Below, piece by piece: positions 4,684 to 40,272 of a stretch of 64,000 nucleotides of DNA (positions are counted from its first letter, which is position 1; each line of letters opens with the position of its first letter). The stretch is from Gemmatimonadota bacterium. GTDB taxonomy: Bacteria > JAAXHH01. The stretch is from the NCBI GenBank assembly GCA_026702745.1, contig JAPPBT010000018.1:32259-96258 (forward strand), written 5' to 3'. The notes under the pieces are model-generated. The model had not been told where the DNA came from and ran no database searches. It saw only the letters and a list, made by a program, of their open reading frames with translations. A program made the position numbers and the translations under genes.

Positions 4684-6378
4684 TCAAAACACCAGCTTCT
4701 TCAGCTCGTGTTTCTTCGTGAAGTAGACGCCGTCCCCGTACATCGGACCGGGATTCTGGAAGGCGGACGGCGCTTCGTGAATGGTAGTCACGACGCCGGT
4801 GGCGGGATCGAAACGGTAGAAACAGTCGGTCGTGAATCCGTATATACCGCCATCCGGACCGGTCTGGAGGCCGCCTTCCAGCGACCGCCCGCCCGGCAGG
4901 GAAGCCAGGTGCACGATCCGCCGGTCACCGGCATCGAAAACGAAGAGATTGGACCCTGATCCTGTACGGGCCGTCCCGCATAGCAGGCCGCCGTCCATGA
5001 CGGCCAGCGCGTCGACGGCCGTAACCTCGACCGGGAGCTGGCCTTCCCACACCTTTTTCTCCTTCTCGTAATCCCAGAGGAACAGCGATGCCTGGTCTAC
5101 GCGCGGCTGCGTGCCGGTGCCGCCGTCTATCGTCGTCCCGACGGCCAGCAGGCCATGGGCCTCCAGCCAGGCCAGCGACCAGCAACTGGCCTCCCCGGCG
5201 ATATCGCGATAGGTACCGAAGGTGTCCGTGCCGGGATCGTACCAGGACAGTGGTCCGCCCCACATGCCGTAGTTCGGTACGGAGGCCGTCCACACGCGGC
5301 CCATGGGACCGGCGACCATGGAACGCGGCCGGTAGGAGATTTCGTCCATGCGGCCGAGATCCCGGGGGTTGCTGCCGGTTTCCTTCCCGAATTGATAGGG
5401 CCGGGCGGGATCGTAGACGGACAGCACGGCGCCCGGGTAGGAACAGATGAAGAGCTTGCCGTCCATGTTGGCCATGGAATAGGCTTCGCCGGTGGCGGTG
5501 GTGCATATGCCCAGGTCGTCCGTGGCGCCGGTGGACGGATCGTGGTGAAACAGGTGCAACGGCAGGATGCTCGAACCGTAGATGTTGTCGTCGGGCCCGC
5601 GATGCACCAGGAAGATCTCGCTGCCCGCGGATACGTAGGCCACGGGGATGGTGCGCGTCCTGCCGGACCCCGGTTGGGTAATAGCGATTTCCCGGAACAT
5701 CTGAATTTCCCGGTCCGCGAAATCCGCCGTGGAACCATCGGACATCGGCAGCGGCGGCGCCGGATCCGGAAGGCTATCTACGGGTTCGGCTTCGAAGCCC
5801 TTCAATCTAAAATCGCCCGCGGTCGACCGGATGTAGAGTTGACCGTCGACCGCCCGGTACAGGTTCAGCGATCCCCCGTCTTCCGTGACCACCACGGGCC
5901 CCACGGTCTCGCGCCGGTCCGTGGCCGGATCGTAGACGACCACGTGCGGACGGGTCATCTTGATGTTGCAGGCGATCGTTCCCCCGGCGCCGACGTAGGG
6001 ATAGCAATACATGTCGGTCTCGTCCATCCGCCCGTGGCGGGTGAACGCGCCGGCTGCCGGATCGTAGCTCGTCAAACCAGCCGAACCGTAGCATCCGATC
6101 CAGATCACGCCGTTGTCGTCCTCGTCCATGTTACAGGGAAAGGTATCGTCGGGCAGGTTGATGGCGCCGAGATCTTCCAGTCTTTCCGTCGCGGGATCGT
6201 AACGGTAGAGGTGCCCCGCGTAGGCCGCACCGATGTAGACCAGGCCGTCGCGGGTGCGCAAGGCGCCCGTGGGGAAATTGGCGGTGGGATCAGGCGCCGT
6301 CGCTTGGGACGTCGTGCCGGTGGCCGGGTCGATTTTCACGACGGTGAAGCCCGCCGCCTGCTGGCCCATCACGGCCAC
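4684..6378 (-). CDS. Beta-propeller repeat protein (YVTN/Vgb-like), function unknown
   Basis: 564 aa with a recurring (Y/F)DPxTG motif roughly every 45-55 aa (YDPATE, YDPAAG, YDPATD, YDPARP, YDPGTD, FDPATG), indicating a multi-bladed propeller. Confidence 0.55.
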   Translation of the reverse strand: MAVMGQQAAGFTVVKIDPATGTTSQATAPDPTANFPTGALRTRDGLVYIGAAYAGHLYRYDPATERLEDLGAINLPDDTFPCNMDEDDNGVIWIGCYGSAGLTSYDPAAGAFTRHGRMDETDMYCYPYVGAGGTIACNIKMTRPHVVVYDPATDRRETVGPVVVTEDGGSLNLYRAVDGQLYIRSTAGDFRLKGFEAEPVDSLPDPAPPLPMSDGSTADFADREIQMFREIAITQPGSGRTRTIPVAYVSAGSEIFLVHRGPDDNIYGSSILPLHLFHHDPSTGATDDLGICTTATGEAYSMANMDGKLFICSYPGAVLSVYDPARPYQFGKETGSNPRDLGRMDEISYRPRSMVAGPMGRVWTASVPNYGMWGGPLSWYDPGTDTFGTYRDIAGEASCWSLAWLEAHGLLAVGTTIDGGTGTQPRVDQASLFLWDYEKEKKVWEGQLPVEVTAVDALAVMDGGLLCGTARTGSGSNLFVFDAGDRRIVHLASLPGGRSLEGGLQTGPDGGIYGFTTDCFYRFDPATGVVTTIHEAPSAFQNPGPMYGDGVYFTKKHELKKLVF

Positions 6379-23442: not shown

Positions 23443-25878
23443 CTACTCCATCCGCAACGACTCGACCGGGTTCGCGGCAGCGGCCCGCACGGCCTGGAAG
23501 CTGACGGTGAGCAGGGCGACCGCCATGGCGAGAGCGCCTGCGAGAACGAAGGTGGTCCAATCCAGGTCGACGCGGTAGGCGAAACCTTCCAGCCAGGCGT
23601 TCATCGCGAAATAGGCGACTGGCCAAGCCACCACGAGGGCCGCGATCACGAGCCGGAAGTACTCTCGAGACAACAGCGCGACGAGACCGGAGGTAGAAGC
23701 GCCGAGGACCTTGCGGACCCCGATCTCCTTCCTGCGCCTTTCCGCGGTGAAGGAGGACAGCCCGACGAGCCCGAGGCAGGCAATAATCACGGCCAGCACG
23801 GAAAAACTGATGAAGATCCTTCCGAACCGCTGTTCGGCATCATATAGGCGCGCGAAGGTGTCTTCTACGAAAAAGTACTCGAATGCCCAATCAGGATTTA
23901 CTTCATGCCATGCCTCTTCGATTGCCGATAGCCCTTCCGACATGCGACCTGCATCGATTTTGATCATGGCGTAACCGCCCGGATAGTTCGGAAACAGCAC
24001 CAGCGGTTCGATGGGTTCGCGTAAGGTGGCATAGTGGAAATCCCTGACCACGCCTACGATCGACGGCCGTAATTCACCTCGCTCATCGGAATCCGTAATC
24101 AGTTCCTGCAGCCCTTCGATCTCCTTACCCAACGCCTCGCCGGCGGATGCATAGCCAAGCCGGTCAACGGCCGCTTCGTTGACTACGACCGCTCCCGTCG
24201 CTGTCCAGTCGCCGGGGAACGCGGAATCGAAATTGCGGCCCGCCACCAGTTCGATGCCGAAAATCCCGATGAAATCATCGTCCACCCAGGCCTGGTTCAT
24301 ATCGATCATCGATGATTCGTCCTGGCCCCGTCCGCGCGCCTTGATCGGCGCCGCGGCGTTCTTGTGCCCTGGAAGCAGGAAATTCATCGAGACGTTCGTC
24401 ACCGCAGGTATCTCCTTCAGCCGTGCTTTGTAGACGCTGGATCTCACGACAACCGGCGCGAAGGTCTGAGGCACCGCGACGACCTGGTCGGAATTGAGCC
24501 CCATGTTTCGCGCGCGTATGAAATCGAGTTGGCTGTAGACCACGCCGGTGCAGATGATGAGGGCGATCGAAATCACAAACTGGCCCACGACCAGGACCCG
24601 GCGGATGGCCGCGTTTCCGGCACCTGTGGAGCGCAGGCCGCTCAGTGCCTGGACCGGTGCGAGCCCGGACAGGTAAAGGGCCGGATAGCTGCCCGAGACG
24701 AAACCCACGACGGCGCCGATCGCCACGACGGCGCCCAGGGCGAACCAGGCGGTTTCCGCATTCAGGGACAGGGATTTGCCCGTGAGCAGGTTGAACCACG
24801 GCAGACTCAACAGGGCAAGCAGGAGGGCGACGCTGACCGCCAGCCCGGTCATGAGCATGGACTCGCTGATGAACTGCCGGATCACCTGGCCCCTGGCCGC
24901 GCCGAAGGTCTTTCGCAGGCCGATCTCCCCGGCCCTTCCCGCGGAACGCGCGGTGGCCAGGTTCATGAAGTTGATGCACGCGATGAGGATGATGAACACG
25001 GCAATGCAGCCGAAAAGATAGACGTACCGGATATCGCTGTTCGGTGTCAGTTCCCGCTCGAGATGAGAGTGAAGATGGATATCCGTGACCGGCTGCAGCC
25101 TGAAGGCCAATGTCGACGATACACCATCATATTGGTCGCCGACGTACTTTTCCACGAAGGCGGGCAGCCTGGCTTCCAGTTCATCGGGATCGCTGCCCTC
25201 GCGGAGCAGGACATAGCCGTACGACTTTCGCCAGTCCCACACGTCGGCCGGTTTATCCGCGTAGTGCTCCTGGATCCGGAACGCCGCGAGGATGTCGAAT
25301 CCGAGGTGCGTGTTGGCGGGCAGGTCCCGCATGACGCCGGTCACCTCGAAATGGAAGGACCCCTCGGCATCCAGGATCTTGCCCATGGGATCTTCGTCGC
25401 CGAAGTATTTCCGGGCAATGGACTCCGACAGCACGACTTTGTCGATACCGGCCAGGGCCGTCCGCTGATCGCCGGCGATCAGCGGCACATCGAAGACTTT
25501 GAAGACCGACGAGTCGGCCAGGTAGAAGTTTCGTTCGTAGAATCCCCGGTCCCCGTACTTGATCATCCAGGCGTTTCCGGGCGGGACGAAGCGCACCATG
25601 TCTTCCACTTCGGGGAAGTCTTCGCGCATGAACTTGACCGTGGGCGTCATGACTTCGGCGGTTCGGATCACCTGGTCGCGGTCGCGCTCTTCCGAGATTA
25701 CCCGGTAGATACGGTCCGCCTTTTCATGGAACTGGTCATAGCTCAACTCGTCCCGGATATAGAGCAGGATGAGGAGGGCGCACGCGATCCCGAGCGCCAG
25801 GCTCATCACGTTGATGGCCGAGTAACCCTTCTCGCGGTTCAGATGGCGCACGGCCACCGTCAGGTAGTTGCGGAACAT
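23443..25878 (-). CDS. ADOP-family permease (MacB-like periplasmic domain + duplicated FtsX), paralog 1
   Basis: 811 aa; N-terminal TM after MFRNYLTVAVRHLNREKGYSAINV; two FtsX-type 4-TM modules; C-terminus ...NPVESLRME. Confidence 0.85.
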   Translation of the reverse strand: MFRNYLTVAVRHLNREKGYSAINVMSLALGIACALLILLYIRDELSYDQFHEKADRIYRVISEERDRDQVIRTAEVMTPTVKFMREDFPEVEDMVRFVPPGNAWMIKYGDRGFYERNFYLADSSVFKVFDVPLIAGDQRTALAGIDKVVLSESIARKYFGDEDPMGKILDAEGSFHFEVTGVMRDLPANTHLGFDILAAFRIQEHYADKPADVWDWRKSYGYVLLREGSDPDELEARLPAFVEKYVGDQYDGVSSTLAFRLQPVTDIHLHSHLERELTPNSDIRYVYLFGCIAVFIILIACINFMNLATARSAGRAGEIGLRKTFGAARGQVIRQFISESMLMTGLAVSVALLLALLSLPWFNLLTGKSLSLNAETAWFALGAVVAIGAVVGFVSGSYPALYLSGLAPVQALSGLRSTGAGNAAIRRVLVVGQFVISIALIICTGVVYSQLDFIRARNMGLNSDQVVAVPQTFAPVVVRSSVYKARLKEIPAVTNVSMNFLLPGHKNAAAPIKARGRGQDESSMIDMNQAWVDDDFIGIFGIELVAGRNFDSAFPGDWTATGAVVVNEAAVDRLGYASAGEALGKEIEGLQELITDSDERGELRPSIVGVVRDFHYATLREPIEPLVLFPNYPGGYAMIKIDAGRMSEGLSAIEEAWHEVNPDWAFEYFFVEDTFARLYDAEQRFGRIFISFSVLAVIIACLGLVGLSSFTAERRRKEIGVRKVLGASTSGLVALLSREYFRLVIAALVVAWPVAYFAMNAWLEGFAYRVDLDWTTFVLAGALAMAVALLTVSFQAVRAAAANPVESLRME

Positions 25879-25885
25879 GGCGCGT

Positions 25886-28342
25886 CTACTCGGTCCGAAG
25901 GGACTCGACGGGATTGGCGGTGGCCGCCCGCACGGCCTGGTAACTCACCGTCAGGAGGGCGAGGGCGATGGCAAGCGCGCCGGCCAGGACAAAAGTCATC
26001 CCGTCCAGGGCGACACGGTACGCGAAATCGTCGAGCCAACGATTCATCGCGAAATAGGCGGCCGGCCAGGCGATTACGTTGGCCACGATCACGAGCCGGA
26101 CGAATTCCCCCGATATCAACCCGATCACGTTCGGCGTGGACGCGCCGAGGACCTTGCGCACTCCGATTTCCTTCGTGCGCCGTTCCGCGGTGTAGGAGGA
26201 GAGGCCCACGAGACCGAGGCAGGCGATAAACACGGCCAGTACGGCGAAACTGACGAATATCCGACCGAAGCGTTGCTCGGCTTCGTAGAGGCGCGCATAG
26301 GTATCTTCGACGAAAAAGTACTCGAAGGCGAAGTCGGGGTTTGTCTCGCGCCATGCTTCCTCGATCGCCGAAAGGCCTTCCGAAAGTTGGTTGTCGTTGA
26401 TCTTGACGACCACGTGGCTGCCGTCGGACTCGGGAAAGAGTACCAGAGGTTCGATGGGTTGATGCAGCGAAGCGTAGTGGAAGTCTTTCACGACGCCTAC
26501 GATACTGCGCGGTTCCGCGGTCTCCTCATCGAAACCCTGTCGCTCGTCGAAAACCCAGTCAAACCGACCATCCAGGGCTTCTTCGGCGGAACCGTAACCC
26601 AGCCGGGAAACTGCGGCTTCGTTCAAAACCGTCCCGCCGCCCGCTCCATACCAGTCGGCGACGAATGCGCGATCGAAGAACCTGCCGGCGGCCAGTTCCA
26701 TGCCGAACGTATCGAAAAACAGGTCGTCCGTCCAGGCCTGGTTCATTTCGATCTTGGCGTTATCACCTTCGCCCAACCTGCGCACAACGGCGGTGATCAC
26801 GGCGTTCTTGTGAAAAGGCAGGATAAAGGTAGCCGTGGCATCCTCCACGTATGGAATTTCCCGCACCCGCTGTCTATATTGTCGCGCCTTCTCAATGACC
26901 GGGGTAAACGTCAGCGGCACGGCGACGAGCCGTGCCGTGTCCATACCCAGGTTCCGGTTTCGGAGGTAGTCGAGCTGGTCGTACACGACGCCTGTGCAGA
27001 TGATCAGGGCGATCGAGATTACGAACTGGCCCGCGACCAGCGTTCTGCGCATGTCCACGTTGCCGGAGTCCCCGGACAACGCGCCCTTCAAGGTATCGAT
27101 CGGAGCGAGTCCGGACAGGTAAAGCGCGGGATAGCTTCCCGATACGAGGCCGACCACGATGCCGGTCACCGCCACGGCGCCCATGATGAACCATGCGGTA
27201 TCCGCGGTCATGGATATGGATTTTCCCGATACCAGATTGAACCAGGGCAAACCGAGCACAACCAGCAGCAGCGCGACGCATACCGCCATTCCGCTCATGA
27301 TCAGGGATTCGCACAGGAACTGACGCGTCACCTGGCCCCGGCCCGCGCCGAAGACCTTTCTCAGGCCGATTTCCCGGGCCCTTCCCGCGGACCGTGCGGT
27401 TGCCAGGTTCATGAAGTTGATGCAGGCGATGAGGATGATAAACACGGCGATCGCCGAAAAAAGATACACGTACCTGATGTCGCTGTTCGGCGTCAGTTCC
27501 CGCTCGAGCCGGGAATGAAGGTGGATGTCCGTCACGGGCTGCAGCCGGTAGGTCAGCGATGACGTTTCGCCGTCGTGGATATCGCCGACATACTTCTCCA
27601 CAAAAGCAGGCAACCTGGCTTCCAGTTCGGCTGGATCGCTTCCCTCCCGGAGCAGGACGTAACTGTAAGACTTGCGCCGGCCCCAGTCGTCGAGCGACTC
27701 GTCCGCGAACGCCTCCTGAATCCTGAATGACGCGAGTATGTCGAACCCGAGGTGCGTATTGGACGGCAGGTCCGCCATGACGCCGGTCACTTCCAGATGA
27801 AAGGTCCCTTCGGCGTCCAGGATCTTCCCTATGGGGTTCTCGTCGCCGAAGTACTTGCGGGCCACTGACTGGGATAGCACGACCCGGTCGTTTCCGCTCA
27901 GTGCGGTCCGGGGATTACCTGCCAGAAGCGGCACATCGAACACGTTGAAAACAGAACTGTCGGCCAGGTAGAAATCGCGTTCGTAGAATCCCCGGTCGCC
28001 GTACTTGACCATCCAGGCGTTCACGGGAGGGTTGAAGCGCACCATGTCTTCCACCTCGGGGAAGTCTTCGCGCATGAACCTGGCCGTGGGTGTCATGACT
28101 TCGGCAGACCGCACGGACCGGATGGACCGGTCGACCCCGCCGCCCTGCCATTCCTCGGAGATCACGCGGAAGATGCGGTCCGCCTTGCCGTGATAACGGT
28201 CATAGCTCGACTCGTCCCGGATATAGAGCATGATGAGGACGCAGCACGCGATCCCGAGCGCCAGGCTCATCACGTTGATGAACGAGTAACCCTTCCTTCG
28301 ACTCAGGTGCCGGAGGGCAACCGTGACGTAGTTTCTGAACAT
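25886..28342 (-). CDS. ADOP-family permease, paralog 2
   Basis: 818 aa, collinear with paralog 1 including near-identical nucleotide stretches; 7-nt gap to paralog 1. Confidence 0.85.
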   Translation of the reverse strand: MFRNYVTVALRHLSRRKGYSFINVMSLALGIACCVLIMLYIRDESSYDRYHGKADRIFRVISEEWQGGGVDRSIRSVRSAEVMTPTARFMREDFPEVEDMVRFNPPVNAWMVKYGDRGFYERDFYLADSSVFNVFDVPLLAGNPRTALSGNDRVVLSQSVARKYFGDENPIGKILDAEGTFHLEVTGVMADLPSNTHLGFDILASFRIQEAFADESLDDWGRRKSYSYVLLREGSDPAELEARLPAFVEKYVGDIHDGETSSLTYRLQPVTDIHLHSRLERELTPNSDIRYVYLFSAIAVFIILIACINFMNLATARSAGRAREIGLRKVFGAGRGQVTRQFLCESLIMSGMAVCVALLLVVLGLPWFNLVSGKSISMTADTAWFIMGAVAVTGIVVGLVSGSYPALYLSGLAPIDTLKGALSGDSGNVDMRRTLVAGQFVISIALIICTGVVYDQLDYLRNRNLGMDTARLVAVPLTFTPVIEKARQYRQRVREIPYVEDATATFILPFHKNAVITAVVRRLGEGDNAKIEMNQAWTDDLFFDTFGMELAAGRFFDRAFVADWYGAGGGTVLNEAAVSRLGYGSAEEALDGRFDWVFDERQGFDEETAEPRSIVGVVKDFHYASLHQPIEPLVLFPESDGSHVVVKINDNQLSEGLSAIEEAWRETNPDFAFEYFFVEDTYARLYEAEQRFGRIFVSFAVLAVFIACLGLVGLSSYTAERRTKEIGVRKVLGASTPNVIGLISGEFVRLVIVANVIAWPAAYFAMNRWLDDFAYRVALDGMTFVLAGALAIALALLTVSYQAVRAATANPVESLRTE

Positions 28343-28383
28343 GGTGAAACTTTACCGCTATTAAAAGGAACGAGAGAGGCGGT

Positions 28384-30828
28384 CTACTCAGTCCGCAGGG
28401 ACTCGATCGGGTTGGCGGTGGCCGCCCGGACGGCCTGGTAACTCACCGTCAGCAGGGCGATCGCCATGGCGAGGACGCCGGCGAGGACGAAGGTCGTCCA
28501 GCCCAGGTCGACGCGGTAGGCGAAGTTTTCGAGCCAGTTGTTCATCACGAGGAAGGCGGCCGGCCAGGCGAAGACGTTGGCCACGATTACGAGCCGGACG
28601 AATTCGTTGGACAGGAGCCGGAACAGTTTCGGCGTGGAAGCGCCCAGGACCTTGCGCACACCGATTTCCTTCGTGCGCCGTTCGGCCGTAAAAGACGCGA
28701 GTCCGAAGAGACCCAGGCACGCGATGAGGACGGCGAGCACGGCAAAACTGACGAATACCTGGCCGAATCGCTGCTCGGCGTCGTAAAGGCGCGCGAAGTT
28801 GTCTTCCACGAAGAAGTACTCGAAGGCGAACTCCGGGTTGACCTCATGCCAGGTTTCCTCGATTGCGGCGAGCCCTTCAGCCATGAATTCCGGCTTGATC
28901 TTGACGACGACGTGACCGCCCTGAAAGTCGGCGAACAGGACCAGGGGGGCTATGGGCTGGTGCAAGGACGCGAAATGGAAATCCTTTACGACCCCGACGA
29001 TCCGGCGCAGTTGAACGCCTTCCTCGTTCCATCCCTGCCGCAGCTCTCTCATCCAGTTCACTTCCTTGCCCACGGCATCTTCCGGTGATTCGAATCCGAG
29101 CCTCGTTACGGCGGCCTCGTTCAGCACAGCCCCGCCGCCCGCGGTCTCCCAGCCCCAGTCGCTGACGAAGGAGGGATCGAAGTAACGGCCCGTGACCACT
29201 TCGATGCCCAGCGTCTCCAGAAAATCCTCATCCGTCCAGGCCTGGTTCATGTCGATCTTCGCAAAGTCACCGTCGCCCGGCCGCTGTAACGTAATCGGTA
29301 TCACGGCGTTCCTGTGGCCGGGAAGTATATAGGTGGAGGTCGCGTTGGTTACATAGGGACTATCCTTCACGCGCTGTTTGTAGATCCTGGCCGTCTCCTG
29401 GACCGGATCGAAAGTCAGCGGTACGGCGACGACCTGGTCCGTGTTCAGTCCCATGTTTCTCTGCTGGATGAATTCAAGCTGGTTGTACACGACCCCGGTG
29501 CATATGATCAGGGCGATCGAAATGACGAATTGGCTGACGACCAGGATCCTGCGCATTCCCGCGGTACCGGAACCCGACGCAAGCGTCCCCTTCAGGGTCT
29601 CGATGGGCGCCAGGCCGGACAGGTAGAACGCGGGATAGCTCCCCGAAACGCACCCTACCACGACACCGATGACCACCACCGCGCCAAGGGCGAACAACGT
29701 GGTGCCCGGATCCACGGCCAGCGACTTGCCGGTGAGCAGGTTGAACCAGGGCAGACTGACCACCGCCAGAAGCAGGGCGAGGCATACGGCCATTCCGCTC
29801 ATGAGCAGCGATTCGATCAGAAACTGCCGGGCCATCTGGGCGCGGACCGCGCCGAAGACCTTTCGAAGGCCGATTTCCCTGGCCCGGCCCGCGGACCGGG
29901 CGGTCGCCAGGTTCATGAAGTTGATGCAGGCGATGACGATGATGAAAACCGCGATGGCGGCAAAGAGATAGACGTATCTGACGTCGCTGTTGGGCGTCAG
30001 TTCCCGTTCCAGGCGGGAGTGCAGGTGGATATCCGTCACCGGCTGCAACCTGTACGTCAGGGATGCATCGCCGCCTTCGTAGCGATTCCCGAGGTGCTTC
30101 TCCACGAAAGCGGGCAGCTTGGCTTCCAGTTCGGCCGGGTCGCTGCCGTCCCGAAGCACGATATAGCTATGGGCCGTGCGCCAGCCCCACTCGTCGACTT
30201 TGGTGTTGGAGTAGGCTTCCTGGATCTTGAAGGACGCGAGTATATCGAATCCGAGGTGCGTGTTGGAAGGCATGTCGGGCATGATGCCCGTCACCTCGAG
30301 GTGAAAAGTGCCCTCGGCGTCCAGGATCCTGCCCATGGGGTCCTCGTCGCCGAAGTACTTTCGGGCCATGGATTCGGACAGCACGATCTTGTCGTTTCCG
30401 GTGAGCGCCGTCTTCGGATTGCCGGTCAGCAGGGGGACGTCGAACACGTTAAAAACGGTCGTATCGGCCAGATAGAAATTCCGTTCGTAGAACCCCTTGT
30501 CCCCGTACTTGACCATCCAGGCATTCCCGGGCGGGACGAGGCGGACCATGTCCTCTATTTCCGGGAAGTCTTCCCTCATGTACCAGACTGTAGGGATCAG
30601 AACGTCCGCATTTCGAACGACCTCGCCTCCCTGCCGGTATTCGGCGGTTACGCGGAATGTTCGGTCCGCGCGATCGTAGAACCGGTCATAGCTCAATTCA
30701 TCGCGGATGTAGAGCAGGATGAGCAGGCAGCAGGCGATTCCGAGCGCCAGGCTCATGACGTTGATGAATGAATAACCCTTGTGCCGGTTAAAGTGACGGA
30801 TCGCTACCGTGAAGTAGTTGCTGAACAT
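28384..30828 (-). CDS. ADOP-family permease, paralog 3
   Basis: 814 aa, same architecture; C-terminus ...NPIESLRTE. Confidence 0.85.
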   Translation of the reverse strand: MFSNYFTVAIRHFNRHKGYSFINVMSLALGIACCLLILLYIRDELSYDRFYDRADRTFRVTAEYRQGGEVVRNADVLIPTVWYMREDFPEIEDMVRLVPPGNAWMVKYGDKGFYERNFYLADTTVFNVFDVPLLTGNPKTALTGNDKIVLSESMARKYFGDEDPMGRILDAEGTFHLEVTGIMPDMPSNTHLGFDILASFKIQEAYSNTKVDEWGWRTAHSYIVLRDGSDPAELEAKLPAFVEKHLGNRYEGGDASLTYRLQPVTDIHLHSRLERELTPNSDVRYVYLFAAIAVFIIVIACINFMNLATARSAGRAREIGLRKVFGAVRAQMARQFLIESLLMSGMAVCLALLLAVVSLPWFNLLTGKSLAVDPGTTLFALGAVVVIGVVVGCVSGSYPAFYLSGLAPIETLKGTLASGSGTAGMRRILVVSQFVISIALIICTGVVYNQLEFIQQRNMGLNTDQVVAVPLTFDPVQETARIYKQRVKDSPYVTNATSTYILPGHRNAVIPITLQRPGDGDFAKIDMNQAWTDEDFLETLGIEVVTGRYFDPSFVSDWGWETAGGGAVLNEAAVTRLGFESPEDAVGKEVNWMRELRQGWNEEGVQLRRIVGVVKDFHFASLHQPIAPLVLFADFQGGHVVVKIKPEFMAEGLAAIEETWHEVNPEFAFEYFFVEDNFARLYDAEQRFGQVFVSFAVLAVLIACLGLFGLASFTAERRTKEIGVRKVLGASTPKLFRLLSNEFVRLVIVANVFAWPAAFLVMNNWLENFAYRVDLGWTTFVLAGVLAMAIALLTVSYQAVRAATANPIESLRTE

Positions 30829-34227: not shown

Positions 34228-35283
<1,056 letters not shown>

Positions 35284-35429
35284 GCCGAAGGCATATACCG
35301 ACGGCGTAGGCCGACGGCGACCGGTAGGTACCAGATGATACAATGTATCTACACCGAATGGAACCCCTTGCCCTTCAACGCGTTCATTACAACGTGATTG
35401 AATCCCCTCCCCGCCCATAAGAATCATGC

Positions 35430-36569
35430 ATGGATATTCACTCGAAAGAATACGCCCACCATTCCCGGCTCCTGGGACGGACCGTAACCTTTCGCCGCAG
35501 TACGGCCAAGTACCTGCTGATCGCCTTCGTAGCCGCGGGACTGCTCCATAGCCTATCCCTGATGTTTCTGTTGGCCACCGGCCTGCTCGAAGACCGGAAC
35601 ATGATCGAACTCACGCTCGCGCCCTACGAGCGCCTGGAGCAGCTCGAACAGGCCTACATGGAAATGCAGAATCCGCCGACCCTGGTCGACGTGCCGGAAG
35701 AAGCCCGCGTGGAGGAACCACCGGACGATCCCGACGCCGACGTGGCGGACAAGAACGCCGTCGCGAGCGACCTGATGGAGGATACGGAGCTGCCCGAGGG
35801 GCTGGCTTATTCCGAGGGCGACCTGGAGATCAGGACGATGGAGGATTCCGAGGAAGAGGAAGATCAACAGCACGACCCCTTCGCCGGCGGCGTCCCGCTC
35901 ACCCCACGGGAGGGCGGCATCGAGGATTTCAATGAGCTGGTAGACCCGCCGATGTGGACCTCGGACATGATTATCCGGCCCGAATTCCGGGGCAGCGGCG
36001 GACGCACGGGCCGCGGCGAAGGCGGGATGGAAGGCGAAATCATCGCTTCGGCGCCCCGGCCTACCGGACCGGAAGCCCCGGTCTTCATCCCCCAGGACGA
36101 CCTGAACGAACTGGCCCAGGAATCCCGCCAACCCACGTATGAGCGGCACCGGCGTTTCGGATTTGGCTTCGGGAGTACCGGGCCGCGGGTGCCCAGAACG
36201 GACAACCGACACACCTCGGTCAGGGACTACGGCGATTTCTCGCTCAGCACCTACGCCTGGGACTACGCGCCTTACCTGTACATCCTCCGCGAAAGGGTGA
36301 GACGGCGCTGGTTCGCCCCCGAGGCCTTCAACCTCGGCCTGGTGAGCGGGCGGGTCATCATACGGTTCAAGATCATGCCCGACGGCGCGCTGCGCGACCT
36401 CGAAGTCCTGTCCTACCGCGACAACGACATCCCCTACCAGTCCCTCGTGGCCTCGAGCCGCAACGCCATCGAGTCGGCCAGCCCCTTCCCGCCCCTTCCC
36501 GCCGATTTCCTCCATCCATTCCTGGAGATCACCGGCACCTTCTACTACCAGATCCTGCGTGCGAGGTAA
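35430..36569 (+). CDS. TonB-family C-terminal-domain protein (energy transducer-like), membrane-anchored with acidic/Pro-rich linker
   Basis: N-terminal TM (YLLIAFVAAGLLHSLSLMFLLATGLL), long acidic low-complexity region, and a TonB_C-like terminal domain (VIIRFKIMPDGALRDLEVLSYRDN...SPFPPLP). Confidence 0.55.
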   Translation: MDIHSKEYAHHSRLLGRTVTFRRSTAKYLLIAFVAAGLLHSLSLMFLLATGLLEDRNMIELTLAPYERLEQLEQAYMEMQNPPTLVDVPEEARVEEPPDDPDADVADKNAVASDLMEDTELPEGLAYSEGDLEIRTMEDSEEEEDQQHDPFAGGVPLTPREGGIEDFNELVDPPMWTSDMIIRPEFRGSGGRTGRGEGGMEGEIIASAPRPTGPEAPVFIPQDDLNELAQESRQPTYERHRRFGFGFGSTGPRVPRTDNRHTSVRDYGDFSLSTYAWDYAPYLYILRERVRRRWFAPEAFNLGLVSGRVIIRFKIMPDGALRDLEVLSYRDNDIPYQSLVASSRNAIESASPFPPLPADFLHPFLEITGTFYYQILRAR

Positions 36570-37490
36570 ATGAGGTCAACGTTGCAAGCGCAAATCGGTA
36601 GACTGGTCGATTCGAAGGCGTTTCAGCACACCGTACTCGGGGTGATCACGGCGGCCGCCATCCTGGTGGGGCTGGAAACCTCGCGGGAAATGGTAGCCCG
36701 GTACGGCGACTGGCTGCACCGGCTCGACCAGTTGGTCCTGCTGTTCTTCATCGTGGAAGCCCTGCTGAAGATGGCGCGCCACGGCCGTCACTGGTACCGG
36801 TATTTCGGCGACCGCTGGAACGTGTTCGATTTCCTCATCGTGGTGGCCTGCCTGATGCCCGCGGGCGGACAGTACGCGGCGGTGCTGCGCCTGGCCCGGG
36901 TGCTGCGGGCGCTGCGGCTGGTGACCGCGGTGCCGAAACTGCAGCTCCTGGTCAACTCGCTGCTCAAGTCGGTCACGTCGCTGGGATACGTCGGCCTGCT
37001 GCTGGCCGTGCTGTTCTACGTCTACGCGGTGCTGGGCGTCTACCTCTTCCGCGGCAACGACCCCGTGCACTTCCAGGACCTGGCGACGGCGCTGCTGACC
37101 CTCTTCCGGGTCGTGACCCTGGAGGACTGGACCGATGTGATGTATATCCAGATGTACGGCAGCGACGCCTATCCGAATTACGCCGATTTCGCCCAGGCCC
37201 ACCTCCGCGAAGCCTCCCGGGCCATGCCCCTCCTCGGCGCCGCATTCTTCGTTTCCTTCGTGATGCTCGGCACCATGATCATGCTGAACCTCTTCATCGG
37301 GGTCATCATCAACTCCATGTCCGAAGCCCAGGCCGACCGGGAGTCGGAGGAAAGGCGCAGGCACCTGGAGCGGGACGGCCGGATCAGTGTGGGGGATGAA
37401 ATCGGGTTGATCGAGGAAGAGATCCAGAAACTGTCGAGACGGCTCAAGTCTCTGCGCGGGTGGGCGGATGCGGACAGCGGGGATGGGTGA
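36570..37490 (+). CDS. Bacterial voltage-gated cation channel (NaChBac/BacNaV family, single 6-TM domain) with TLEDWTD selectivity filter
   Basis: S4 voltage sensor RLARVLRALRLVTAVPKL; pore helix and filter FRVVTLEDWTDVMY; C-terminal coiled coil; ATG follows the upstream gene's stop directly. Confidence 0.75.
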   Translation: MRSTLQAQIGRLVDSKAFQHTVLGVITAAAILVGLETSREMVARYGDWLHRLDQLVLLFFIVEALLKMARHGRHWYRYFGDRWNVFDFLIVVACLMPAGGQYAAVLRLARVLRALRLVTAVPKLQLLVNSLLKSVTSLGYVGLLLAVLFYVYAVLGVYLFRGNDPVHFQDLATALLTLFRVVTLEDWTDVMYIQMYGSDAYPNYADFAQAHLREASRAMPLLGAAFFVSFVMLGTMIMLNLFIGVIINSMSEAQADRESEERRRHLERDGRISVGDEIGLIEEEIQKLSRRLKSLRGWADADSGDG

Positions 37491-37493
37491 CTT

Positions 37494-37844
37494 TCAGATC
37501 TGCTCGCCGCCTTCCGGTCCGTAGAAGATGACCCAGGTGGTCATCGACTCGCCGAAATCAAGGAACCGGTGCTCGACGCCCGCGGGCACAAAGAAGAAAT
37601 CCCCGGCCTCGAATGGCACGACCTCTCCCCCCATTGCGAATTTCCCCTTCCCTTCGACGATCACGTAGCACTCGTCTCGGCTGTGGGGCTTCTGATCGTC
37701 CACATCACGGGGGATGTACAGCTCGATCTGCAGTTCGCCGCGCTCAAGGGCGACGTGGAACCGATCCCCGTTCGGAGCAGGAATCTTCGCGGCGACTTCC
37801 GCGGGGGTGATGCGCTTGCAGGTGTGTCTTTGCATGTTTCCCAT
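37494..37844 (-). CDS. Cupin-domain protein
   Basis: 116 aa with a beta-rich cupin-like sequence (GDFFFVPAGVEHRF). Confidence 0.6.
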   Translation of the reverse strand: MGNMQRHTCKRITPAEVAAKIPAPNGDRFHVALERGELQIELYIPRDVDDQKPHSRDECYVIVEGKGKFAMGGEVVPFEAGDFFFVPAGVEHRFLDFGESMTTWVIFYGPEGGEQI

Positions 37845-37869
37845 CCACGTGGATCAGATCGACTTAAGC

Positions 37870-39036
37870 TCAGGTCAAGAAGGCTTGCATAATCTGTTTC
37901 TTCGCACTGTAACCTCGTCTGGTTCGTTCGACAAGATCCATTTTCCTCAGATAATTCAAGTCTCGACTGATCATTTTCTGTGAAGCATTCGCGTATTCCC
38001 TGGCGACCCTGGGGCTGACTTCACCGATCTGCGACCTGGGAACGGGTTGATCCTGTTCCGAGAGAGCCAGGACCAGATTCCTACGACGTTTCGCAGCTGC
38101 ACCGGTCATACCCTGGAATTGCTCATGCACGAAATTGATCCAGGATATTTGAAGATGTTGACTTCTGATCGATGCAAGCTGTTCTGTTAGGCCTTCAGAG
38201 AAACCTCGAATCGCATATTCCATGAATTGGTCCATTTTCCCTCCAGACTGTGATGCCCTGTCAAGTTGTCTGGCATATTCCGTTCTGGTCTGGTTATAGA
38301 AATTGCTGGGAAGCAATGTCGCAGGGATTGGAATATCCGCTTCAATGAGTATTCTGAACTCGATCAGCCTGGCTGTTCTTCCGTTCCCGTCTCCAAAAGG
38401 ATGAATCCAAGCAAAGTAAAGGTGGGCGGCGATCGCTTTGACTAAGCCAATCGCGACTCTACTGTCTTCGTTTGTGTCGTTGTTAGACGAATTCAACCAT
38501 TTGCATAGTTGTTCAAGCAAGTAATTGCAATCTTCCGCCTGAACCGCGCGATACCTGCCCACACCAACGGAGTGCTTACGTATCTCGCCTGGTACCGTTT
38601 CCTCGTCCGGCAACTCGAGACCTTTTAACACCACCTTGTTATGCCGGCATATTTCCTTTGTTGACCACGGTGGAAGTTTACTTCGACTACGACGTGACAA
38701 CATTCTTCTTATTTCCGCCAGGATATTGTCGATCTCCTGTTTCAAGTACTCCTTTGACTCCGGAAGTCTCAGTTTTCCTTCCATATGCGCACGTACATCT
38801 TCTTCCGAAAGGGTGTTGCCTTCGATCGCGGTTGTACCAAGTACGCCCCTGGCCAGGTACACCTGGTACAGTTCATGCGCCGTCTGTCTCATCAACGGAA
38901 TTCCTGTCAGTTGCTCGCATTTAGCCTTGATCTCACCAAGTAACATCCAGATCCTTGGTGGGGCGTGAACCAAATAGTCCGTGTCGAAGCTTCGCAGCCA
39001 CGGATGGGTAGTTTCAAATCGTCTCATTGTTGACAC
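37870..39036 (-). CDS. Fic-family protein (AMPylase-type, class II with N-terminal inhibitory motif) plus C-terminal winged-helix, low-GC
   Basis: Canonical Fic motif HPFGDGNGRTARL; inhibitory (S/T)xxxE(G/N) motif TTAIEGN near the N-terminus; gene is markedly AT-richer than its flanks. Confidence 0.85.
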   Translation of the reverse strand: MSTMRRFETTHPWLRSFDTDYLVHAPPRIWMLLGEIKAKCEQLTGIPLMRQTAHELYQVYLARGVLGTTAIEGNTLSEEDVRAHMEGKLRLPESKEYLKQEIDNILAEIRRMLSRRSRSKLPPWSTKEICRHNKVVLKGLELPDEETVPGEIRKHSVGVGRYRAVQAEDCNYLLEQLCKWLNSSNNDTNEDSRVAIGLVKAIAAHLYFAWIHPFGDGNGRTARLIEFRILIEADIPIPATLLPSNFYNQTRTEYARQLDRASQSGGKMDQFMEYAIRGFSEGLTEQLASIRSQHLQISWINFVHEQFQGMTGAAAKRRRNLVLALSEQDQPVPRSQIGEVSPRVAREYANASQKMISRDLNYLRKMDLVERTRRGYSAKKQIMQAFLT

Positions 39037-39288: not shown

Positions 39289-40272
39289 ATGCCCACCCAC
39301 CCCACGCTGGCCGATATCCAAAAGGCACACCGTTTCCTCAACCAACACCTGTCTCCGACGCCCATGTACCGGTCCGCCGCGTTCAGCGAGGCCCTGGGGC
39401 TGGAACTCCACATAAAGTACGAGAATTTCCAGCCGATCCGCTCCTTCAAGGTGAGGGGCGGGTTGTACACCATGTCCCTGCTCGACGATGCGCAGCGCGC
39501 CAGGGGCGTCACCACGGCGTCCACCGGCAACCATGGCCAGGGCATTGCCTACGGCGGAGGCGTGATGGGCGTTCCCGTCACGGTGGTCGTGCCCCACGGA
39601 ACACCCGAGGTGAAGAGCGACGCCATCCGCCGCCTCGGCGCCGAGCTGGTCGTCCACGGGGAAACGATTGCCGACGGATTCGCGCGGTCCCGGGAGATCG
39701 CGGAAGAGACCGGCATGGTGTACATCGAAGACGGTGAGGACTTCGGCCTCATGGCGGGCGCGGGCACCATCGGCCTGGAGATCGTGGAGGATCTGCCGGA
39801 CGTGGACGCGGTGGTGCTGCCCGTGGGCGGCGGCAACCTGATCGCGGGTGTGGGCGCGGCCATCAAGGCCACCCAACCGGACGTTCGTCTCATCGGCGTC
39901 CAGGCGCACAACGCGCCGTCGGTTTACCGGTCCTGGCAGGAAGGCCGGACCGTGACCACGGCGACCTGCGACACCTTCGCCGGGGGACTGGCGACGACCT
40001 ATCCAGGCGGCCTGGCCTTCGACGTCCTGAAAGACCGGGTCGACGAAATGCATCTCGTCACCGAGGAAGAGATGAAGCAGGCGATCCCCGTCGTCCTGGA
40101 ACACACCGGGTTCATCGCGGAAGGTGCGGCCGCGGCGGTGTTCGCCCTGTGCATGCGCGAGGCGTCGTCGTGGCGGGGCCAGCGCGTCGCCGCGCTGTTC
40201 AGCGGCGGCAATCTCGGGATGGACGGCGTGCGCGATATGATCCGGAGCTTGAACGAACAGCGGCCTGCTTAG
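39289..40272 (+). CDS. Threonine/serine dehydratase (PLP-dependent, fold type II)
   Basis: PLP-lysine motif SFKVRG and glycine-rich loop VLPVGGGNLIAG. Confidence 0.8.
   Translation: MPTHPTLADIQKAHRFLNQHLSPTPMYRSAAFSEALGLELHIKYENFQPIRSFKVRGGLYTMSLLDDAQRARGVTTASTGNHGQGIAYGGGVMGVPVTVVVPHGTPEVKSDAIRRLGAELVVHGETIADGFARSREIAEETGMVYIEDGEDFGLMAGAGTIGLEIVEDLPDVDAVVLPVGGGNLIAGVGAAIKATQPDVRLIGVQAHNAPSVYRSWQEGRTVTTATCDTFAGGLATTYPGGLAFDVLKDRVDEMHLVTEEEMKQAIPVVLEHTGFIAEGAAAAVFALCMREASSWRGQRVAALFSGGNLGMDGVRDMIRSLNEQRPA

Follow-up and report, generated by a model that had tools for sequence, protein, structure and literature searches.

Voltage-gated channels of the ancestor-like BacNav (AnclNav) group are the closest described systems to a channel gene that we analysed, together with the TonB-like gene directly upstream of it, in a 64,000-nucleotide stretch of DNA from a Gemmatimonadota bacterium (assembly GCA_026702745.1, contig JAPPBT010000018.1, positions 32,259 to 96,258 of the forward strand; hereafter the window, whose own numbering is used below unless a locus label is given). 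NavPp, from the myxobacterium Plesiocystis pacifica (ZP_01909854), prefers Na+ (Ca2+ to Na+ permeability ratio, PCa/PNa, 0.308 ± 0.028) while letting some Ca2+ pass, and is blocked with low affinity by extracellular Ca2+ (PMC7041947). No other native channel with precisely the selectivity filter TLEDWTD has been measured. CavMr, from Meiothermus ruber, is a native prokaryotic Ca2+ channel of the same group, with the filter TLEGWVD. In AnclNavs, Ca2+ selectivity depends above all on a glycine at filter position 4: NavPp-D4G acquires Ca2+ selectivity, CavMr-G4D drops to a PCa/PNa of 7.7, and CavMr carrying the NavPp filter is poorly selective, at 13.8 (PMC7041947). Filters with additional acidic residues are found in the engineered Ca2+-selective bacterial sodium channels (BacNaVs) CavAb (TLDDWSD), NavAb (TLEDWSD) and NaChBac (TLEDWAD), the last two of which are quoted in the same study (PMC7041947). 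On an AnclNav backbone, however, such acidic filters are insufficient: NavPp T6S and T6A, with the filters TLEDWSD and TLEDWAD, are still Ca2+-blocked and show no Ca2+ selectivity (PMC7041947).

The original prediction for this locus held that the window channel, with the sequence EDWTD in its filter, would be selective for Ca2+ or of mixed selectivity, and that the TonB-like protein and the channel, whose genes abut, form a functional couple. The analysis reported here points instead, with good confidence, to a NavPp-like stand-alone channel that lies next to the TonB-like gene by chance, and in one bacterial lineage only.

The channel gene and its product

Both open reading frames (ORFs), 35430..36569 and 36570..37490, were recovered on the plus strand exactly as first described. 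The channel gene has the following parts:

36570..37490, plus strand: channel ORF of the AnclNav group, 306 amino acids from the ATG and 302 from the conserved TTG
36888..36923, plus strand: S4 voltage sensor RLARVLRALRLV, residues 107-118, with four arginines, one at every third position
37116..37136, plus strand: selectivity filter TLEDWTD, residues 183-189, identical to that of NavPp
37158..37229, plus strand: extended P2-S6 extracellular loop, residues 197-220, free of cysteine
37389..37478, plus strand: C-terminal cytoplasmic helix IGLIEEEIQKLSRRLKSLRGW, residues 274-303, with hydrophobic residues in 3-4 (heptad-like) spacing

The ORF is intact and its composition is of the coding type (GC content at third and second codon positions, GC3 and GC2, of 0.88 and 0.38). 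Its product matches the Pfam family Ion_trans (E=1.6e-47), all solved BacNaVs and single repeats of eukaryotic Cav/Nav channels; a search of NCBIfam returned only a far sub-threshold match, to a K+ channel model. An AlphaFold2 model built with 39 homologues as input has a mean predicted local distance difference test score (pLDDT) of 82 and contains S1-S6, P1, P2 and a C-terminal helix, with the S4 helix at residues 102-118, P1 at 171-182, P2 at 187-196 and the C-terminal helix at 274-303. The best Foldseek matches to this model are NavMs, NavAb/CavAb and NaChBac, each with probability 1.00. These results, together with the S4 arginines, bear out the proposal of a BacNaV-type voltage-gated channel.

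Among the 39 homologues, which reach down to 55% identity, R107, R110, R113 and R116 of S4 are invariant, as are all seven filter residues and many residues of S5 and S6. This invariance indicates that the channel is under purifying selection. The S4 and the pore segment (FRVVTLEDWTDVMY, filter residues 183-189) were both found as proposed, and the C-terminal coiled coil that had been proposed with them is represented by a predicted helix with heptad-like spacing. Its block-mean pLDDT is ~72-88, with 88 over residues 281-300, and in a tetramer the modelled helix would likely form a coiled coil. In every feature that could be tested, the channel is a member of the BacNaV superfamily and of the AnclNav group.

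Filter alignment and group membership

The channel was aligned with the reference set published by Shimomura et al. 2020 (eLife 9:e52828, PMC7041947). TLEDWTD falls column for column on NaChBac TLESWAS, NavAb TLESWSM and CavMr TLEGWVD, which places EDWTD inside the selectivity filter, as had been supposed. The channel is 52% identical to a Coraliomargarita homologue, 50% to NavPp, 46% to CavMr, 34% to NaChBac and 29% to NavAb, and a neighbour-joining distance tree, computed without support values, puts it inside the AnclNav long-loop cluster. A P2-S6 insertion of ~24 residues is common to the channel and the AnclNavs and is a gap in NaChBac, NavAb and NavMs; these three channels share the six-transmembrane fold, the filter columns and, by prediction, the homotetramer-type architecture with the window channel, but they are only 29-34% identical to it. 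Judged by its alignment, the channel is thus a member of the described AnclNav group.

Within that group the filter is not unusual. TLEDWTD is carried by all of the best 120 database homologues (120/120) and by 73 of 79 genomic loci, so on these sequence counts it is the consensus filter of an AnclNav-type subgroup. Asp186, at filter position 4, is invariant in the 39 homologues, and the CavMr-type glycine is accordingly absent from this position. Relative to CavMr, with which the window channel shares the long loop and the aspartate at position 7, Gly4 is replaced by aspartate and Val6 by threonine. The resemblance to NavPp is closer: the two have the same filter, a long P2-S6 loop, a four-arginine S4 and a C-terminal helix, and they are 75% identical over S6, but only 25% in the P2-S6 loop. 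NavPp further differs in having two loop cysteines that are missing from the window channel, in its cytoplasmic tail, and in its host, a myxobacterium as opposed to a sponge-associated bacterium labelled Latescibacterota or Gemmatimonadota. Two cysteines, which could form a disulfide, are also present in this loop in CavMr and in the Moorea and Leptospira homologues; there are none in the window channel, in 119 of its 120 close homologues or in the Coraliomargarita homologue.

Predicted ion selectivity

The pore module of the channel is 61% identical to that of NavPp and 49% to that of CavMr, and over P1, filter and P2 the figures are 74% and 58%. Since the channel has an aspartate at position 4 and a pore module nearer to NavPp than to CavMr, NavPp-like behaviour is the best-supported prediction by analogy, and one that we regard as rather likely. 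A poorly selective cation channel with mixed permeation would, on the same comparison, be the less likely outcome, and a truly Ca2+-selective one appears very unlikely. The CavMr chimera with the NavPp filter, which retained a PCa/PNa of 13.8, shows that the backbone contributes to selectivity as well.

Ca2+ selectivity is therefore not what TLEDWTD predicts: the channel with the identical filter prefers Na+ and is blocked by Ca2+, and Gly4, which Ca2+ selectivity requires, is an aspartate here. The alternative of mixed selectivity fares better, as NavPp itself passes some Ca2+.

The TonB-like protein

The upstream gene had been described as encoding a TonB-C-domain membrane protein with a long acidic linker, and this description holds. 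Its parts are as follows:

35430..36569, plus strand: TonB-family gene, 379 amino acids, encoding a transmembrane anchor, a disordered acidic linker and a C-terminal TonB/TolA-fold domain
35508..35588, plus strand: transmembrane anchor KYLLIAFVAAGLLHSLSLMFLLATGLL, residues 27-53, with the His40 codon at 35547-35549
35589..35939, plus strand: acidic part of the periplasmic linker, residues 54-170, 32% Asp+Glu, net charge -31, 9% Pro
36225..36566, plus strand: TonB_C-type C-terminal domain, residues 266-379, pLDDT 76-91, with the order beta-alpha-beta-beta-alpha-beta

Taken singly, the protein matches Pfam TonB_C with E=0.005 and 17.8 bits, below the gathering score of 24.6, and it has no match in NCBIfam. 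As a family the signal is stronger: 24 of 28 members match TonB_C (PF03544), the best at 4.3e-9, and a search of the PDB with the family profile retrieves Helicobacter pylori TonB (5lw8/6sly) at 1e-4. Foldseek searches with the C-terminal domain place the C-terminal domains of H. pylori and Pseudomonas aeruginosa TonB and TolA domain III at the top, with probability 1.00 and a target-normalised TM-score of 0.66 against TonB. In the AlphaFold2 model there is one transmembrane helix, the N-terminal one (residues 17-50, pLDDT 86-90), and the linker is predicted to be disordered (pLDDT below 50). H40 is invariant in the 28 sequences, in the form AxxxH in the window clade and in the canonical form SxxxH in distant members. 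Homologues at ~30% identity in KSB1 and Krumholzibacteriota carry a TonB annotation. The upstream protein is a genuine member of the TonB family, conserved in Latescibacterota and neighbouring phyla.

With the TonB/TolA transducers (H. pylori TonB, PDB 6sly, 5lw8) it shares a single transmembrane segment with a histidine, a long periplasmic spacer and the C-terminal fold. Their spacer is proline-rich and their anchor motif is SxxxH, whereas the window protein has AxxxH and an acidic, glycine-rich spacer, with 10% Pro and 24% Asp+Glu over the whole linker. No ExbB/ExbD or TonB-dependent receptor was found among the matches listed (25 of 73 families) in a Pfam scan of 45 window ORFs, nor in ten small window ORFs scanned singly. 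The window does hold an LptE gene, which fits a diderm cell envelope.

Conservation of the gene pair

If the two proteins were a conserved functional pair, their genes would be expected to stay together. A scan of GTDB species genomes for the channel gave 79 loci, 22 close and 57 more distant. The TonB-like gene is upstream of the channel in only 22 of the 79, in each of which channel identity is 84% or higher. The 22 genomes that bear the pair are sponge-associated metagenome-assembled genomes labelled Latescibacterota or Gemmatimonadetes; one of them, L001 (SB0665_bin_8), is 99% identical. The genes around the pair are:

34228..35283, plus strand: trpS (Pfam tRNA-synt_1b, 7.6e-77), upstream neighbour of the TonB-like gene across the phylum
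37494-37844, minus strand: cupin gene (Pfam), between the channel and Fic genes
37870-39036, minus strand: Fic gene (Pfam), GC3 0.52 against ~0.85 for its neighbours
39289..40272, plus strand: PALP gene, for a pyridoxal phosphate (PLP)-dependent enzyme, whose orthologue adjoins the TonB-like gene in the more distant relative L083

The clade is shallow, with trpS 86-97% identical, and its members are collinear well beyond the pair: a PP-loop gene and trpS are in place in 22/22 genomes and the cupin gene in 21/22. Because the whole neighbourhood is collinear in these 22 genomes, the adjacency of the TonB-like gene and the channel weighs no more than general synteny.

Outside the clade the pair is not seen. 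The other 57 channel loci, from Latescibacterota (72-81% identity), Planctomycetota, Verrucomicrobiota and Myxococcota, have no neighbour gene of the window. Their immediate upstream ORFs (56 scanned with Pfam) include no TonB_C and no recurrent family and are mixed (formyltransferase, DNA polymerase I, aminotransferase and others), and the 55 immediate downstream ORFs scanned in the same way are heterogeneous and likewise without TonB_C. A hidden Markov model (HMM) of the TonB-like family had no match within +/-6 kb of the 57 distant channel loci even at E<=10; run on the full set of 7,854 stop-to-stop ORFs from the 79 loci, it matched only in the 22 close genomes. A divergent TonB_C partner beside the distant channels was considered and rejected, as neither the neighbour Pfam scans nor the family HMM brought one to light. 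Another conserved channel partner was also considered, since downstream ORFs of ~230 amino acids overlap the channel stop by 4 nt in several loci, and was rejected; the families represented there (PhyH, methyltransferase and others) are unrelated, and none is present in more than 2 loci.

The same comparison was made from the side of the TonB-like gene. Orthologues at 61%, 43% and 43% identity each lie directly downstream of trpS (3/3), and the gene that follows them is EamA (on the opposite strand), PALP or a FlK-type thioesterase, with the channel in 0/3. In L083, PALP begins 65 nt after the TonB-like gene and is 66% identical to the window PALP; this argues for an ancestral order of trpS, TonB-like gene and PALP. 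In the window lineage the gap between the TonB-like gene and PALP is filled by the channel, the cupin gene and, variably, Fic. With the pair at 0/57 distant channel loci and 0/3 distant TonB-like loci, the synteny check, run both ways, speaks against a conserved functional pair.

Several further observations were made at these loci. The adjacency of trpS and the TonB-like gene, on the same strand with a gap of ~90-200 nt, is kept down to 43% TonB-like identity (L080-L085), and a dual-specificity phosphatase gene is often found upstream of the two on the other strand. At L018:4826-5985 the TonB-like gene is spread over three frames, as a pseudogene or through long-read indel errors. The Fic/DOC gene sits in a local GC dip of the window and is present in some close genomes and missing in others; it is probably a recent horizontal acquisition.

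The junction between the two genes

In the window, the TAA of the TonB-like gene (36567-36569) is followed directly by ATG 36570, and it was from this abutment that translational coupling had been proposed. This ATG is present only in the window and in L001. The start position common to all relatives lies slightly downstream:

36582..36584, plus strand: conserved start codon TTG, at a position common to 22/22 relatives, with GAGG at 36572-36575 and a 6-nt spacer

At this position the 22 relatives have TTG in most cases, GTG in six and ATG in one, and in most of them a purine-rich, Shine-Dalgarno-like stretch of the GAGG/GGAG/AGGA type precedes it by ~5-8 nt. Gene callers give the close channel homologues 301-302 amino acids. 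Given the conserved TTG position, the Shine-Dalgarno-like stretch and the restriction of the ATG to the window and L001, the real gap is probably 12 nt rather than 0. The abutting ATG therefore exists in the window but is not the conserved start.

In the 22 close genomes the TonB-like stop and the channel start lie as little as ~3 nt and as much as ~280 nt apart, with a distance of ~70-280 nt in many. As junction length varies and ATG 36570 is limited to the window and L001, strict translational coupling is not a conserved feature. Even so, the two genes of the window are very probably co-transcribed, since no promoter would fit into a gap of 0-12 nt. A consensus scan of 35200-37900 for promoters and terminators returned no sites, a result of little weight in a phylum whose promoters may not follow that consensus.

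Part of this length variation comes from repeats. The junction (window 36560-36600) is a hot spot for tandem duplication, seen in L005-L009, L011, L012 and L015 around 5900-6020, with a duplicated unit of ~30 nt (CCGTTGAxAGCGCAxATCGTGCGAGGTAA) in one to three extra copies that fuses the 5' end of the channel gene to the 3' end of the TonB-like gene. Tandem duplications of the junction unit occur in L007-L009 and L011, and in-frame 9-nt (Gly-Arg-Leu) expansions of the channel N-terminus in L005 and L006. From its sequence (GAGGTAA, then ATGAGGTCAACG, then TTG), the window ATG 36570 itself looks like the by-product of a small partial duplication.

Four genomes have an insert of ~110 nt between the two genes, each with a near-perfect palindrome (GTATACAC-N3-TGTATATAC):

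L004:5880-6003: palindrome-bearing insert
L006:5825-5960: palindrome-bearing insert
L017:5889-6003: palindrome-bearing insert
L019:5894-6003: palindrome-bearing insert

As to its nature, a small mobile element is one possibility, and an operator providing the channel with a control region of its own is another. A perfect palindrome, GATACA-A-TGTATC, is also present in the window at 35337-35349, 82 nt upstream of the ATG of the TonB-like gene; nothing else in the 64 kb matches ATACA-N(1-3)-TGTAT, for which 0.01 occurrences would be expected. Apart from the window only L002 retains it, with variant forms in L001 and L004. A shared operator was considered, as the palindrome in the spacers of L004, L006, L017 and L019 is related, yet it was rejected for want of conservation across the clade.

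Other features of the window

Three tandem paralogues of ~815 amino acids each, with MacB_PCD and FtsX permease domains, occupy 23443-30828 on the minus strand. At 1415-2164, also on the minus strand, an AhpC/TSA peroxiredoxin is distributed over two adjacent ORFs (N-terminal part 1772-2164, C-terminal part 1415-1744); the split may reflect a frameshift or a pseudogene.

Discussion

In the explanation favoured here, the channel would be a stand-alone homotetrameric voltage-gated AnclNav cation channel with the consensus filter of its group. Depolarisation would move the four-arginine S4 and open the pore, and the current, by analogy with NavPp, would most likely be carried mainly by Na+ with a minor Ca2+ fraction, under partial block by millimolar extracellular Ca2+. 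The channel, the cupin gene and sometimes Fic would have come between the TonB-like gene and PALP in one sponge-associated lineage, trpS being the neighbour that the TonB-like gene would have kept across Latescibacterota. Co-transcription would then simply follow from the place that the channel came to occupy and would not speak for joint function. Two points weigh against this explanation. Adjacency and shared orientation are kept in 22/22 clade genomes, and in several of these the Shine-Dalgarno-like GAGG of the channel lies within the last codons of the TonB-like gene, so that a lineage-specific operon with a real link is conceivable. The second concerns selectivity, which is predicted here from a homologue of 50% identity although, as the chimera with CavMr indicates, the backbone matters.

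That second point bears on the possibility that the extra acidic residues make the channel natively Ca2+-selective or at least strongly Ca2+-preferring. Its three filter acidic residues do resemble those of the engineered NavAb and NaChBac filters, the CavMr chimera kept its PCa/PNa of 13.8 with the NavPp filter, and NavPp itself is not impermeable to Ca2+ (PCa/PNa 0.31). We consider this quite unlikely nonetheless: native NavPp has the same filter and is Na+-preferring and Ca2+-blocked, its T6S and T6A mutants remain Ca2+-blocked with exactly the engineered filters, the key Gly4 is replaced by the family-invariant Asp186, and the pore module is nearer to NavPp (61%) than to CavMr (49%). Still less support is found for a functional couple of the TonB-like protein and the channel in the window lineage, in which, for instance, the channel would act on the membrane potential from which the TonB-like transducer draws its energy, or the acidic periplasmic linker would serve as a cation buffer at the channel mouth. 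Such a couple would be in keeping with the co-directional adjacency in 22/22 clade genomes, maintained although the downstream side varies with the presence or absence of Fic, with the 0-12-nt gap in the window, with the overlap of the Shine-Dalgarno-like sequence and the TonB-like end in several clade genomes, and with the linker net charge of -31. It is very doubtful all the same, since the clade is shallow and is collinear also for neighbour genes without a plausible link to a channel, the pair is missing at the 57 distant channel loci and the 3 distant TonB-like loci, the junction has widened to ~70-280 nt in many members (in four by the palindrome insert), and the literature searched yielded no link between TonB and BacNaVs, the one paper with both terms being a review of membrane transport in general. 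The functional couple of the original prediction thus finds the pair unconserved from both sides, and the abutting ATG on which it leaned is not the conserved start. A related scenario, in which the channel was captured into the TonB-like transcription unit in the sponge-symbiont lineage and both now cooperate, is highly improbable; were it true, a Ca2+-blocked Na+ channel might tune the membrane potential or ion-motive force for the TonB-like transducer, and the acidic linker, with its net charge of -31, might concentrate divalent cations at the channel mouth. Equally little probability is given to an inactive channel gene, or to a decayed or repurposed Ion_trans homologue without voltage gating. 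The duplication hot spot at its 5' end might suggest decay, but the ORF is intact with coding-type composition, and the S4 arginines, the filter and many S5/S6 residues are invariant in the 39 homologues.

For the NavPp-like stand-alone channel, several implications follow for the family and for reading such loci. A functional pair can hardly be inferred from a stop-start abutment in a single genome. The number of acidic residues in a BacNaV filter is no guide to Ca2+ selectivity when the backbone is of the AnclNav type. A large and widespread subgroup, which includes Latescibacterota, Planctomycetota, Verrucomicrobiota and Myxococcota, has TLEDWTD as its standard filter, and a sponge-associated, Latescibacterota-type clade is added to the known AnclNav channels. 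The window channel is a candidate second NavPp-like channel for biophysics, differing from NavPp by its cysteine-free P2-S6 loop.

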